A DNA stretch of 64,000 bases, taken from the NCBI GenBank assembly GCA_965208105.1, contig OZ242318.1, forward strand, positions 992,001 to 1,056,000, in the 5' to 3' direction. Source of the stretch: Candidatus Latescibacterota bacterium (GTDB lineage Bacteria; Latescibacterota; UBA2968; UBA8231). Position 1 is the stretch's first letter, and each line of letters begins with the position of its first letter. Under the pieces are notes generated by a model. That model had not been told where the DNA came from and made no database searches. It saw nothing but the letters and a program-made list of their open reading frames with translations. Below, piece by piece: positions 55,113 through 60,238 of this stretch. Both the position numbers and the translations under genes were made by a program.

Positions 55113-57224
55113 GTGAAATCCTGGTACAGCCAAGTCCTGGAGCAAGGTGATGCTGCCCTGCGGGCCCAGGTAGCCAGAGCCTTGCTGAAGGGGCGCAAGC
55201 CCCGGAAGCCCAGGAAGCCGGACCACTTCGGCCGCATCGTCGAATACCTGCGCAGGGGTCACCACTGCTGCGGGGTGGTGCAGGGGGACCCGAACAAGTC
55301 GAGGTCTTTGTGGGTTCTGAATCAGGAGGGCAAGGAGGCCTGGGTGAGCCATCGCAAGCTCATCGACATGTCGAGCGAAAAAATCGGGCTGCGGCAGCGC
55401 CATGAAATCGTCCGCGCCCTGCGCCAGGTCAACCGGCGCCGGGAGAGGATAAAGGGGGAGCTGAACCTGCGGCCCCTGTGGGAATTGGCCGCCGAGGAGC
55501 CGGACCGAAAATGGGCCCTGAGCGAACTGGCCGAGCTCTACTTCGGGGAAGACCAGGACAGCGACCGCCTGACCGCCCTTGCCCGGCTCCTGGGAGAGGG
55601 GAAGTTTTTCTCCCGGCAGGAGCAGCACTATCTGTCATTGCCGGCAGGCAAAGTGGAAGAGCGCGGCCGGGCATCGGAGCAGCGGCACCGCGATCGAGAC
55701 CGATTGGAGGAAGCAGCCCTTTGGCTGCGGCAGGTGGCGGATGGCAAAGAGGGCGCCCGGCCGGAGGGGGCCGCGGAGGCCATTGCCGTGTTGGAGCAGG
55801 CAGCCCTGTTCGAGGGAGAAAGTCCAAGGGCAAAAGAGGCGGCCAGGTTGATGAAACAGGCGCATCTGCACGGTCCGCTGGCGGCCTTCGATGTCCTGGT
55901 CAAACTGGGACACTGGGACGTGAACGAGAATCTCGAGCTGCTGCGCTGCGATGTGCCCGTGGACTTTTCGACAAAGGCCCTGGCCGAAGCGGCGGAGCTC
56001 CGCGGGCTGCCTGCGGCTGGACGCGGGCGGCGCTGGTGGGGCCGGCGGGTCTACGGTTTTTCGCGGGATGGGAAGGTTTGTGACAGGGCCTTCAGCGTGC
56101 GTCGGACCCTCTTCGGATACAAGCTGGGCCTGCACTTCGCCGTCCCCGCCTTGCTGGTGCAACCAGAGGGCCGGGTGGAGGTGGAGGCCATGGAACGCGG
56201 GGCTTCCATATACCTGCCCGATGGTTCGATCCCCATGTTGCCGCCTTCCCTGGCCGCTGCCGCTGGGCTGACTCCAGGGGAGCGCCGGCCCGCCCTGACC
56301 GTGGAGGTGCGCCTCGATCTCCGCCGCCAGATCAAGGGGTTTGCCCTCCGCCTGTGCCGGGTCAGGCCGCGGATGGTCTTGCGCATGGAGGAGGCAGAGG
56401 CCCGGCTGGCCGCCGATCCGCACCTGCGCTGGTTGTACGATCTGGCCCGGACCCGGCGGCAGACGCGGCGACAGAGGGGGGATTTGATTCTGGCCGCGCC
56501 CGAACTGAACATGGATTTCAGGGAAGGGGCGGTCCGGATCCAGCGCCTGGAGGCGAACCAGGCCGGGCCGCTGATCTGCGAGGAGCTGAAGTTGCTCGCC
56601 CAGGAGCTGGCCGGGGCGTTTTGCGCTCGAAATGGCATCCCATCGGTCTACCGGGTCGAGCCTGTTTCCCCCGGAATCTCGGTGGAGGGAGAGGAGTACG
56701 ATGCCGCCCGGGTACACGCAGGGAAGAAGCAGATGTCCCGAGGAAGGCTGCAGACCGAACCCCCGGCGCACGGCCCAGGGAGGGTGTGCATCGGCCATCC
56801 CCTCGATGGCTACGAGGATCTGCTGATGCAGCGACAACTGCTGGGCTTTATTGCCGACGGCACCCTACGGTACGTCCGGGAGGATTTGGCCCGGGGCCTG
56901 AGCGCCACCGCCCTGGCGCGCGAGACGGCAGCAAAGGTCATGGGCTCGGCCCGGCACTACTGGCAGCTGAAGTACCTGGAGGAAAAGGCGGGAGAAGAGG
57001 TGGAAGGGGTTGTGCTGGAACGCGCCGGGGTTGGAATCCTGGTCGAACTGGACTGTTGCCTGTTGAAGGTCTTTGTGCCCGGGAGACGCGAGACCTGGGC
57101 CGCTCCGGGAGATCGAATTCGGGCAATGGTAGGCCTGGTTTCGGCGCGCCGGGATTTGATTCGTCTCGAGCATCCCCGGCCTCTTCAGGCCGGTGCAAAA
57201 GATTACTCCTCCGTTTCTCTTTAG
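55113..57224 (+). CDS. RNB-domain (RNase II/R-like) protein with degenerate catalytic motifs
   Basis: RGASIYLPD..IPMLP, YEDL..QRQL, C-terminal S1-like domain. Confidence 0.78.
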   Translation: MKSWYSQVLEQGDAALRAQVARALLKGRKPRKPRKPDHFGRIVEYLRRGHHCCGVVQGDPNKSRSLWVLNQEGKEAWVSHRKLIDMSSEKIGLRQRHEIVRALRQVNRRRERIKGELNLRPLWELAAEEPDRKWALSELAELYFGEDQDSDRLTALARLLGEGKFFSRQEQHYLSLPAGKVEERGRASEQRHRDRDRLEEAALWLRQVADGKEGARPEGAAEAIAVLEQAALFEGESPRAKEAARLMKQAHLHGPLAAFDVLVKLGHWDVNENLELLRCDVPVDFSTKALAEAAELRGLPAAGRGRRWWGRRVYGFSRDGKVCDRAFSVRRTLFGYKLGLHFAVPALLVQPEGRVEVEAMERGASIYLPDGSIPMLPPSLAAAAGLTPGERRPALTVEVRLDLRRQIKGFALRLCRVRPRMVLRMEEAEARLAADPHLRWLYDLARTRRQTRRQRGDLILAAPELNMDFREGAVRIQRLEANQAGPLICEELKLLAQELAGAFCARNGIPSVYRVEPVSPGISVEGEEYDAARVHAGKKQMSRGRLQTEPPAHGPGRVCIGHPLDGYEDLLMQRQLLGFIADGTLRYVREDLARGLSATALARETAAKVMGSARHYWQLKYLEEKAGEEVEGVVLERAGVGILVELDCCLLKVFVPGRRETWAAPGDRIRAMVGLVSARRDLIRLEHPRPLQAGAKDYSSVSL

Positions 57225-57389
57225 CGATCGGCCTCCTCGGACGCAATTTTAATGGCCATTCCACCGAGTACATGTGGGGTCTGCAATTCAACTCGAACCG
57301 GGTGAGGCTTTGGCGTCCCCATCTCGCAAAGCTCGCGAAGCTCCAGCCGACTGGGGCAGCGTTGCGGCGATCGCGGTAACTCGCCCCTA

Positions 57390-57551
57390 GTGTCCCGTCG
57401 CAGAGATAGGTTGGCGCAATTGGGCCGCCGAGGCGCCTGGCTCACTAGGCGCCTGAGCGAGTCGTACATGTGGTGTACGGCGAGTGAAGGCAACGCCGTG
57501 AGCCAGGATGGATCGTCGGAAAAATGGCGAAATATTTCTGCGACGGGACAC
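57390..57551. mobile_element. IS630-derived MITE (162 bp)
   Basis: TIRs GTGTCCCGTCGCAGA(G/A)ATA; TA duplication in a CTAG target once the IS110 is removed; minus strand ends QPISATGH-stop, like IS630 transposase C-termini. Confidence 0.72.
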
Positions 57552-57604
57552 TGATATGTATTGACGGTTGTCAACCCCCTCCGGGGTGGTCGTTTCGGGT
57601 GTTA

Positions 57605-57812
57605 TCTTTGCATGAGTTTGTTCGGGAACAGAAGGGACGCTGTAGCGACGGTTGATCCGACTGATATTCGCGGGTTGGTTACCGCCTGTCCTGGGTGCGT
57701 CGCGGAGCGGCCTCAATCTAGAGTCGAGGGTCAGCCTGATAGGCGCCTCATAGTGTCTTCGAGGATTCTCCTGACCGGTCCCTTCTGTCCCGTTTCGATT
57801 TACATGAGCAAA
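57605..57812 (-). ncRNA. Putative bridge/seekRNA of the IS1111-type element
   Basis: Closing stem 57623-57638 with 57778-57792; internal loop with target-matching segments; donor-matching CTGATAT at 57661; ends approximate. Confidence 0.65.
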
Positions 57813-57845
57813 GGTCCTATGCCGGCTTCTGAGACGATGAGCTTA

Positions 57846-58985
57846 TCAGGCGGCGATCCGAGGCCTCCTGGCCACGAGGCGGCCGGGGCGTTTCTGCTCC
57901 CAGGCGATGGCCCAGATGAAACCCAAAAGCTCCCGCGCGATCGCGGTGCAGACTTTGTTTTTCGGCATCCCTCGCCCACTCAGCCGTCGATAGCGTCCAC
58001 ACAGGCGTTTCTGTGCCTTCCAGGCGATGGCCTGTATGGGGGGTGCGGTCTGTTCGGCGCGTCGTTGCAAGGCGGCCGTCTTGCGGGCGGGAAAGCGATA
58101 GCACCAGGCCGCTTCCACCAGCACGCGCCGCACGTGGGCGTTGCCCGCCTTGGTGATCGCCCCTCGCTTTTGGCGGGAGCCGCTGGAATGCTCGCTGGGG
58201 ACCAGACCGACGAAGGCCATCAGTTGGCGCGGCGAGTCAAAGCGGGTGAGGTCCCCCAACTCGGCCAGGGTCGTAACCGCGGTGAGCGTGTCTACCCCGC
58301 GCAGCGCCCTCATAGCCCGCGTCTCCCCTTCCAAAGACCATCCCTCCAGCGCCTGCTGCAGGGCCTGGTCCAACCCCTGGATCCGACCTTGGGCTTCCTG
58401 TACCGCGTCCACGTATTCCTGAAAGACGATCTGCTGGGCCGGATGATCGAAGCGCTGGGTCTGCAGCCAGCGAAAGTGGGCTTGGGTCCAGCGACTGCGC
58501 CCGGAGTAGATCCGGCCGTGGCGCTGCAAGAAGCTGTTCAGCCGCTGGCGCACGCGGCGCTCGGCGTGCTTGAAGTCTTCCCGGCAGCGCTCCAGATCGC
58601 GCATCGCCTCCTGCGCTTCGTCGGGCACCCACACGGGGGTCAACTCGCCGTGTTGGAAAAGCCGCACCAGAGACACAGCATCGCGGCGGTCGGTCTTGAT
58701 GCGGTCGCCCGGCCGACGCGGGATCAGCGAGGGCGCCACCACCGTGCAGGCGTGCCCCAGGGCTGTGAGCTGACGGTAGACGCCGTAGCCGCAGGGTCCG
58801 GCCTCGTAGCAAAACCGCAACGAGGTCCCACCACGGGCCAGTTGGCCCGCCAGCTTGGACAACGCGGCGCCCGTAGACGGTATCGTTCCATACAGGTCTG
58901 GCCCTTTTCGGCCTTCACCGGCCAGGGCGACGGTGATCGAATCTTTATGTATGTCCAAGGCGACGAATTTCGTAGATTTACGCAT
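57846..58985 (-). CDS. IS110-family recombinase/transposase
   Basis: ALDIHK, YEAG, KTDRRDA (DEDD); GLVPSEHSSG, ITKAGN, AIARELL. Confidence 0.95.
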   Translation of the reverse strand: MRKSTKFVALDIHKDSITVALAGEGRKGPDLYGTIPSTGAALSKLAGQLARGGTSLRFCYEAGPCGYGVYRQLTALGHACTVVAPSLIPRRPGDRIKTDRRDAVSLVRLFQHGELTPVWVPDEAQEAMRDLERCREDFKHAERRVRQRLNSFLQRHGRIYSGRSRWTQAHFRWLQTQRFDHPAQQIVFQEYVDAVQEAQGRIQGLDQALQQALEGWSLEGETRAMRALRGVDTLTAVTTLAELGDLTRFDSPRQLMAFVGLVPSEHSSGSRQKRGAITKAGNAHVRRVLVEAAWCYRFPARKTAALQRRAEQTAPPIQAIAWKAQKRLCGRYRRLSGRGMPKNKVCTAIARELLGFIWAIAWEQKRPGRLVARRPRIAA

Positions 58986-59098
58986 GGCCTCCTCCTTCTC
59001 GCTGGGGATAGGTCTTTGGGTGAACTCCGTTTTCCCAAAGATAACCCCCGACAACCGAGTCGGAGGAGGTCTTTCATATCTCCGTCAATACATAAGGT

Positions 59099-60238
59099 CT
59101 AGACCCCGGCTAGGGCCTGAGCAAAATCCGCGCACAAATCCTCGGCGGCCTCGATTCCGCAGGCCACTCGCACCAGACCGTCGGTTATGCCCATGGCCGC
59201 CCGCTCTTCCCCACTCAAGCCGCTGTGCGACGTGGTGGCCGGCCGGGTAATCAGGGTTTCGACCCCGCCCAGGCTCGGAGCCGAGGCCGGCAGGACGAGC
59301 CTGGACAGCAATCGCTCTGCGGCTTCCACTCCCCCTTGCAGCTCGAAGCTCAATACCCCACCCGCCCCCGTGAACAGCCGTTGCGCCCGCTGATATTGCG
59401 GATGGCTTTCCAGCCCCGGATAATTCACCCGTCTCACCTGCTCCTGCCCGGCCAGAAAGCGCGCCAGCCGCAGGCCATTTTCGTCGTGCTGGCGCATTCT
59501 CAGCGACAAGGTCTTCAGGCCTCGTTGCAGCAGAAAGCAGGTGTGGGTATCCAAGGTCCCTCCCAGGTGATTGAGTTTGTGGGTAATGGCGTTGATGCGG
59601 GCAGCCGAGCCCACTACCACCCCGGCGACGAGGTCCGAGTGGCCGTTGAGATACTTGGTCGCGCTATGCAGCTCCAGGTCGAAACCGATCTCCAGCGGGC
59701 GGAAGTTGCACGGCGAGGCAAAGGTATTGTCGATCAGGGATACCAGCTCATGCTCGCGGGCAAATTCCACCACCGCCTCCAAGTCCGCCACCTCCAGCAG
59801 CGGGTTGGTCATTGTCTCCACGTAGATCGCCCGGGTCTCCGGCCGCAGCTTGGCCGCCCATGTCTCCGGCGCATTGCCGCCGATGAAGTCGTAGCTCAAG
59901 CCAAAATCCGGCGCATCCTGGGTAACAAAGCCGTGCGTGCCCCCGTAGAGGCAGTCCTGGATGAGCAGGTGATCGCCGCTGTTGAGCACGGTCAGGGATG
60001 CGGTGGTAATCGCGGCCATCCCCGAGCCGGTGACCAGGGCAGCCTCGCCGCCGCAGACAGCGGCCAGTTTGGCGTGCAATACGCGGTGATTGGGGGTGTT
60101 GTTGAGGCGGAGATAGCGGATGTCGTCGTATGCCTGCTCGTCCTGCGAGACATATGTCGAGCTCTGGAAGATCGGCAGCACGACGGCTCCGTCGATGCGC
60201 TCCTCGCCGGCGTGGACGAGGCGAGTCTGAATATCCAT
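59099..60238 (-). CDS. Cys/Met metabolism PLP enzyme (cystathionine gamma-synthase/lyase family)
   Basis: [43 protein letters not shown]. Confidence 0.92.

Follow-up and report, generated by a model that had tools for sequence, protein, structure and literature searches.

Introduction

RNA-guided recombinases of the IS110 and IS1111 elements are under development as genome-editing tools, and the natural diversity of these elements is the raw material for that development.

Among the closest described systems, seekRNAs are documented for the IS1111-group elements ISEc11, ISPa11, ISKpn4 and ISPst6 (Siddiquee et al., 2024, PMC11187229), which, in the parts of that report drawn on here, share a long non-coding region 3' of the transposase gene (described as well in PMC11208160), subterminal inverted repeats and the C-terminal transposase motif GL-P----SG. 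Within their seekRNAs, the stretch matching the top strand stands 5' of the stretch matching the bottom strand, the two overlapping in the target, an order which is given as the reverse of that in IS110 types, and close relatives have been re-directed naturally by changed guide stretches (PMC11187229, same parts). All of these features recur in the element described here, which lies in a 64,000-nt stretch of a Candidatus Latescibacterota genome, in the following called the window. It is unlike the group in its transposase of 379 aa, as compared with the 330-350 aa stated in PMC11187229, and unlike the IS1111 seekRNAs in a structured RNA core of 170 nt, whose second loop matches the ends of the element itself. 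The element is of IS1111 architecture on every tested feature except the protein, whereby the IS1111 type is assigned by layout and not by descent.

IS621 (Durrant et al., 2024, PMC11208160; Hiraizumi et al., 2024, PMC11208158) provides the other point of comparison. As far as the cited portions of these reports describe it, its bridge RNA has two internal loops with the target loop 5' of the donor loop, and each loop reads both strands flanking a 2-nt core which is covered by both guides (PMC11208160); these features are found here too, tentatively so for the second donor guide, and motifs point to a DEDD plus serine recombinase here as well. Unlike in IS621, the RNA gene is located at the 3' end instead of the 5' end of the element, the guide order within the loops is reversed, a 14-bp closing stem encloses both stem-loops and the right target guide pairs with the base before the core, a T that hardly varies.

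Site-specific insertion into a palindromic or inverted-repeat sequence of another repeat or mobile element, as in the case of IS1111 in QMITE2 of Coxiella (PMC5896051), IS4321/IS5075 in the inverted repeats of the Tn21 family (PMC11208160, reference 10) and ISPpu9 in REP sequences (PMC12288879), each in the cited passages of these sources, is likewise seen for the present element. Unlike those, the target here is the outermost junction, CTAG plus the first inverted-repeat bases, of a different family of 160-bp repeats, and the host lineage is another one.

We consider it very probable that the locus holds an apparently intact IS110-family element of IS1111-type layout with a 3' region encoding a bridge RNA (seekRNA) of about 170 nt. 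It is an ordinary addition to a class known since 2024, for which mechanism class, 3' location and repeat targeting have all been published, and the clade may already be a known, listed subfamily. No principle is changed and a specialist will not be surprised; the locus is useful as a natural, well-documented case in a clade remote from the studied systems (IS621, ISCro4, ISEc11), and together with its relatives it supplies a well-supported 170-nt RNA model and about 50 natural guide/target pairs.

Experimental procedures

The genome, a single contig of 4.85 Mb, was searched for copies of the element with positions 57555-59098 of the window as the query, 2 nt short at the right end. A protein scan of genome contigs found 235 relatives, from which 80 loci of many phyla with 56-85% protein identity were kept. 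Element ends in the relatives were located by searching for the reverse complement of the right repeat, a search which replaced an nhmmer profile of the left end that had matched 6 of the 80 loci.

Alignment A1 and model R1 (170 positions, 44 pairs) derive from five close relatives with 78-94% DNA identity. The model was given 73 sources, namely 70 of the 80 loci, the loci L052 and L053 and the window; the ten loci left out have a non-coding region identical to a listed one. Matches between guides and flanks were counted register-free, with L052 and L053, whose flanks were parsed separately, left out of the counts.

Results

The element measures 1,548 bp, with a body (57553-59098) of 1,546 bp, and the coordinates of its features are collected in Table 1. 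Its core copies, at 59099-59100 and 57551-57552, read AG in the transposase and RNA sense and CT on the + strand. On the + strand, the left junction is GGGACA-CT-GATATG and the right junction CATAAGGT-CT-AGACCCC, so that CT is present at both, and excising the element at the CT yields GGGACACTAGACCCC, the very site which the initial annotation had proposed to be restored upon removal of the insertion sequence. The likeness to the CT core of IS621 that had been drawn at the same time stands for the letters and fails for the strand, as the core is AG, not CT, in the transposase and RNA sense; the resemblance therefore concerns the opposite strand only and is not mechanistic.

Table 1. Positions in the window of the insertion sequence, its transposase gene, its predicted RNA and its target repeat
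Feature	Positions	Strand	Sequence and basis
MITE-like repeat, target	57387-57550	.	160-bp body 57391-57550, inverted-repeat ends TGTCCCGTCGCAGA, CTAG flanks
Whole insertion sequence including both AG core copies	57551-59100	minus	12 genome copies with exactly the same ends
Right subterminal inverted repeat	57555-57567	minus	CCGUCAAUACAUA (RNA sense), 2 nt inside the right end
Predicted bridge/seekRNA structured core, 170 nt	57623-57792	minus	Energy fold, model R1, covariation
Stem-loop 2, putative donor-binding loop	57645-57703	minus	Outer GCGACG/CGUCGC, 2-3-bp mid helix, apical GCGG/CCGC
Left donor guide AUAUCAG (3' strand)	57661-57667	minus	Core preceded by the final 5 nt of the right end
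Candidate right donor guide AGGAC	57688-57692	minus	Faces core G plus left-end ACCT, with an A.A mismatch at left-end base 1
Stem-loop 1, putative target-binding loop	57704-57771	minus	9x9 internal loop between CCUCG/UGAGG and UGAGG/CCUCG
Left target guide UCUAG	57718-57722	minus	Same as top strand TCTAG, made up of left flank and core; predicted to pair with the bottom strand
Right target guide GACACUA	57751-57757	minus	Identical in 12/12 genome copies; covaries with the right flank in relatives
Transposase gene, 379 aa	57846-58985	minus	ATG preceded by GAAGGAGGAGG; Pfam PF01548, PF02371; NCBIfam NF033542
Left subterminal inverted repeat	59082-59094	minus	TATGTATTGACGG, 4 nt inside the left end; sequence reading

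All 12 copies in the genome show the junctions ...CTAG|ACCTTATG on the left and ...ACATATCAG| on the right with AG as the sole repeated part, that is, the site-specific insertion, short repeated core and lack of a long target duplication by which the IS110 family is recognized. The subterminal inverted repeats match each other perfectly over 13 bp, within the 7-17 bp given for the IS1111 group, and the right repeats of relatives (GTCAATCCATA, GTCACACCATA and similar) each have a matching left repeat, with paired changes at both ends. Non-coding sequence extends over 293 nt 3' of the transposase gene (57553-57845) and over 113 nt 5' of it (58986-59098).

The transposase matches the Pfam families DEDD_Tnp_IS110 (PF01548, E = 6.4e-13) and Transposase_20 (PF02371, E = 1.9e-22) and, with 263.4 bits against a cut-off of 140, the NCBIfam model NF033542 'IS110 family RNA-guided transposase', which supports assignment of the element to the IS110 family on sequence grounds. 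Motifs and an alignment with ISCro4 place the acidic residues at D11 (ALDIH), E61 (YEAG) and D99 plus D102 (TDRRD), while the GLxPxxxxSG motif is present as GLVPSEHS-SG with S268-G269 assigned by motif. The listed 402-aa open reading frame starting from a TTG at 59054 is probably too long. Identity to genes labelled IS5075/IS4321 amounts to about 26-27% over residues 65-296 (61% of the length), and the best plasmid match, a Cupriavidus record, reaches 60%. Solved structures match distantly (IS621 8wt6, E = 2.2e-5; ISCro4 9t56, E = 1.7e-8) and no structural inference was therefore drawn from them.

Two neighbouring reading frames deserve mention. A 513-aa open frame (57561-59102, + strand) runs antisense to the transposase gene and spans the whole element, most likely a by-product of G+C-rich sequence. 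A gene for a PLP enzyme of Cys/Met metabolism (Pfam PF01053; 59099-60238, minus strand) ends at the element, and its stop codon TAG (59099-59101) is composed of the last left-flank T and the AG core, so that insertion leaves frame and stop of this gene intact.

Eleven full-length copies with 95-100% identity were counted in the genome, along with one that carries an internal deletion. Seven copies are about 100% identical over 1.5 kb and several others are variants at 95-98%; the frame is uninterrupted over its full length in 10 of the 11 scored copies. On the left, the junction is nnCTAG|ACCTTATG in 12/12 copies, with flanks that otherwise differ, and on the right it is ACATATCAG|TGTCCCGTCGCAG in 10/12 copies, which sit in the same orientation at the ends of a repeat. 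The comparison of flanks thus placed 10/12 copies at the CTAG/repeat-end junction, with all 12 preceded by CTAG, and the other two reside at the sites TAG|TGGTCGC and TAG|TGTTGTG, which match 5-6 of the 7 guide positions.

The repeat concerned is MITE-like, and the insertion sequence in the window is positioned between its CTAG and the repeat end on the 57550 side. Genome-wide, 226 ends (up to 2 mismatches) and 82 paired elements with the 160-bp body were found; among the 226 ends, 109 are free and preceded by CTAG and 10 are occupied by the insertion sequence. Uninterrupted copies in the same genome therefore represent the empty site directly, the 109 free ends reading CTAG plus TGTCCC, and the empty target can be given as nnCTAG-TGTCCC or, in its longer form, as CTAG-TGTCCCGTC, with the crossover predicted to fall within AG. 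The programmed target is best explained as the junction of CTAG with the inverted-repeat end of this 160-bp repeat; an RNA programmed for that junction would let the element live at the ends of the repeat, which accounts for the 10/12 copies found there.

CTAG is usually present on both sides of the 160-bp repeat. As CTAG is palindromic, most copies of the repeat are uninformative on target duplication, and a nested insertion alone (G000:C1:3999566-4001432; L005, L015, L017) speaks for it. There, the remnant RNA gene of an older, diverged copy of the insertion sequence, with the different right target guide GACUGCACUA, is split by the 160-bp repeat precisely where its own left guide is encoded, at the YTAG. 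The two borders of the splitting repeat read CTAG and CTAA, and a current copy of the insertion sequence is located at the end of the splitting repeat. The arrangement, read from sequence, suggests that the 160-bp repeat may duplicate CTAR on insertion.

Other loci vary the theme. The copy L010 (G000:C1:2089784-2091328) resides at one end of another inverted-repeat element, TGTTGTGTCCTGC ... GGACGCAACACTAG, and its left guide variant CCCUAG fits its own flank CCTAG. The relative L052, which belongs to a different genus within the same family, is flanked by the related repeat end TGTCCTGTCGCAGAAATA. An orphan partial match to the RNA model (70.6 bits, G000:C1:3931300-3931437), without a transposase gene, adjoins the right-end fragment L014, which is 91% identical to element positions 1385-1543.

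The predicted RNA is organized by a closing stem of 14 bp, approximately 57778-57791 with 57624-57638, around two stem-loops, each of which has an internal loop. The energy fold of minus-strand 57600-57800 gives z = -2.45; a search of Rfam 15 over 57000-59500 at E up to 1 returned 0 matches. Model R1 matched over its full length in 71/73 sources, and the two loci with no model match, L077 and L134, were also without an nhmmer match to the region. In the alignment of these 71 sources, 92.5% of cells are paired as compared with 38-44% when partners are slid. Fitting the alignment to the model biases it towards the structure, yet little doubt is left by the slid controls and by how many pair types occur. 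Compensatory changes occur in 26/44 pairs, a count which 3/500 shuffles reach, and in the closing stem they concern 14/14 pairs. Covariation across homologues thereby backs the structure and, as described below, both target guides. It also revises the fold which the initial annotation had drawn: the 11x11 internal loop becomes 9x9 with the stems supported by covariation (8x8 in the energy fold), and in place of the second stem GACGC/GCGTC the outer stem is GCGACG/CGUCGC, 57698-57703 with 57645-57650, positions 57636-57640 being part of the closing stem.

The short motifs read in that annotation, GACACUA, UCUAG and, on the + strand, CTGATAT, are all present where they had been reported (Table 1). 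The strands of stem-loop 1 are CCUCG-AAGACACUA-UGAGG on the 5' side and CCUCG-ACUCUAGAU-UGAGG on the 3' side. On the top strand, the reverse complement of GACACUA reads TAG|TGTC, namely the last left-flank base, the AG core and the first 4 nt of the repeat end. The proposed reading of the loop strands as target guides is supported by their covariation with the flanks over about 50 natural guide/target pairs. Right guide and right flank match over at least 6 nt across the core in 36 of 51 distinct natural pairs, as compared with 1.1% of 2,494 mismatched pairings, and left guide and left flank over at least 5 nt in 27 of 43 pairs, as compared with 5.0% of 1,756 mismatched pairings. Individual relatives illustrate the agreement, with the 5' loop strand GACUCUA at the site TAG|AGT (L050), AAAACUA at TAG|TTTT (L053), AGGCGCCUA at AG|GCGCCT (L125), GCCACACUA at AG|TGTGGC (L145) and GUUUGCCCUU at AAG|GGCAAAC (L111), the last with the base before the core changed in both guide and site. 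Across the natural pairs, the positions TAG are nearly fixed and about 6-7 nt to the right and 2-5 nt to the left are variable. Matches of 3 nt or fewer were found in 13/51 pairs of guide and right flank; four of these involve G.U at the core, and others a deleted copy (L073), altered ends (L092) and apparently off-target or rearranged sites.

All 12 copies in the genome share one right guide, and the left guide is CUCUAG in 9 copies, CCAUAG in 2 and CCCUAG in 1. The left target match of the genome's own copies comprises just 4-5 nt; the two CCAUAG copies mismatch their flanks, CCCTAG and TCCTAG, at -2. The base at -3 is T in 4 and C in 6 of the 10 occupied repeat ends, with G or A in none, whereas the 109 free CTAG ends have C in 40, G in 31, T in 20 and A in 18 (G or A in 49/109). 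Pairing of a guide U with a bottom-strand A or G would produce such a restriction to T and C at occupied ends.

In stem-loop 2, the putative left donor guide equals the 7-mer of the right end in 60 of 64 aligned loci with a locatable right end, and the loop changes along with the end in three lineages, to ATACCAG (4 loci), ATAACAG (1) and ATATCAA (1), which upholds the interpretation of CTGATAT as a donor guide. The four exceptions are L117 and the loci L092, L103 and L110 (end ATATCAA, loop ATATCAG), a disagreement of one base that may reflect decay of the copies or recent changes not yet compensated. For the second donor guide, which the initial annotation had left unlocated, AGGAC is a candidate with an imperfect match of 4/5. 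Relatives have (A/U)(A/U)GUC at the same position opposite GACA(T), with 1-2 mismatches in most, and where the left end starts AG|AGAAG, the 5' strand of the donor loop reads CUCU. At one pair of the mid-loop helix, 49 distinct sequences have U-A and 5 have A-U, the left end of the latter still starting with A. The A.A mismatch of AGGAC is explained by the flip of this 2-bp helix in the clade of the window, and flip and mismatch together make the assignment of AGGAC as the right donor guide tentative.

Two further ideas on the donor loop were discarded. Placing the right donor guide in another register, at the loop's 5' edge, suits L103 and L104 alone. A handshake between the post-core base of the left donor guide, a U in the clade of the window, and the first right-flank base was dropped, as the first right-flank bases in five clade members are T, T, T, A and G, with G in L118.

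With respect to expression, a scan for sigma-70-type promoters over 57400-59250 gave 0 sites, whereby the lineage's own consensus may differ, and the predicted circle junction, read by eye, has TTGACA in the right end with no -10-like hexamer at a distance of 16-18 nt. Eight RNA-library runs contain 6-25% of sampled words of the element. Contigs of four RNA libraries, 90-99% alike, cover parts of 57427-59102 including 57532-57842, and one of them, X2 (57427-57698), spans from the repeat into the element; such contigs may stem from RNA or from carried-over DNA alike, give no strand, ends or level, and count neither for transcription nor for its absence.

Discussion

In the proposed mechanism, the element would excise as a circle joining ...ACATATC-AG-ACCTTATG..., and the DEDD transposase would bind the RNA, of which stem-loop 2 would hold the circle junction and stem-loop 1 the target, with GACACUA pairing with the top strand TAG|TGTC, before strands are exchanged at the AG core. 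We infer the circle, the RNA-protein binding and the strand-exchange chemistry from what the cited parts of the work on IS621 (PMC11208160, PMC11208158) and ISEc11 (PMC11187229) describe; transcription and present-day activity are presumed. When the initial annotation spoke of an intact programmable recombinase, 'intact' holds in the sense of an open frame, catalytic motifs and seven nearly identical copies, and reaches as far as that sense, while a programmable nature can be deduced from the natural reprogramming seen among the sequences of relatives.

Whether the RNA addresses both partners of the reaction is the point at which readings diverge. It is improbable, in our estimate, that the RNA guides target choice only, in which case the protein would read the ends via the subterminal repeats and stem-loop 2 would be a protein-binding scaffold with AUAUCAG as a non-guide. 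Such a division of labour would sit well with a weak second donor guide (4/5 in the window, 1-2 mismatches in most relatives), with the near invariance of stem-loop 2, with the mid-loop flip from U-A to A-U at a retained left-end A, which looks like selection for an RNA-RNA pair, and with ISEc11, for which, in the cited part of PMC11187229, an 82-nt seekRNA sufficed and reprogramming needed changed donor flanks. In three lineages, however, the AUAUCAG 7-mer and the right end change in step, the loop's 5' strand goes from GUC to CUC where the left end is AG|AG instead of AG|AC, and donor-binding nucleotides are reported for IS1111-group RNAs in the portion of PMC11208160 used here. Far more remote is the notion that the region is merely a structured 3' untranslated region or terminator of the transposase mRNA with flank matches that arose by chance. 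Although the window's own matches span just 7, 5 and 7 nt, the 291-nt region as a whole folds with an unexceptional z = -1.54 and there is no RNA family match, covariation of guide and flank extends over dozens of targets, a level equalled by 1-5% of mismatched pairings, and the loop strands vary while the stems stay paired.

A well-built copy may nonetheless be immobile, silenced or promoterless in its host, so that the copies would record past activity. We regard this as unlikely, if somewhat less so than the readings above. In its favour are the sigma-70-type scan, in which no promoter-like site was seen, RNA-library contigs that may stem from DNA, the one internally deleted copy and the several variants at 95-98%. 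Against it, seven copies about 100% identical over 1.5 kb with open frames indicate recent spread, a junction promoter may form in the circle only and the promoter consensus of the lineage may differ.

Taking the preferred reading, a mobile element with a bridge RNA for target and donor, the clade could conceivably use a variant geometry of that RNA, a proposal to which we give some weight while rather doubting it. It would comprise a clamping closing stem, the near-fixed TAG, a very short left guide and an RNA-RNA pair in the middle of the donor loop, and the left guide may here read little beyond the CTAG beside the inverted-repeat end of another repeat. If so, donor recognition would depend largely on one guide plus the subterminal repeats, and the element would be a dedicated parasite of the insertion junctions of another mobile repeat.

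The left guide also stands out in the RNA-library contigs, the variants of which cluster in the strand coding for the left target guide and in the adjoining stem (57715-57723 and 57740 of the window), the changes being A>G at 57715-57716, A>T at 57722 plus G>T at 57723. Elements with different left guides seem to be present in the population.
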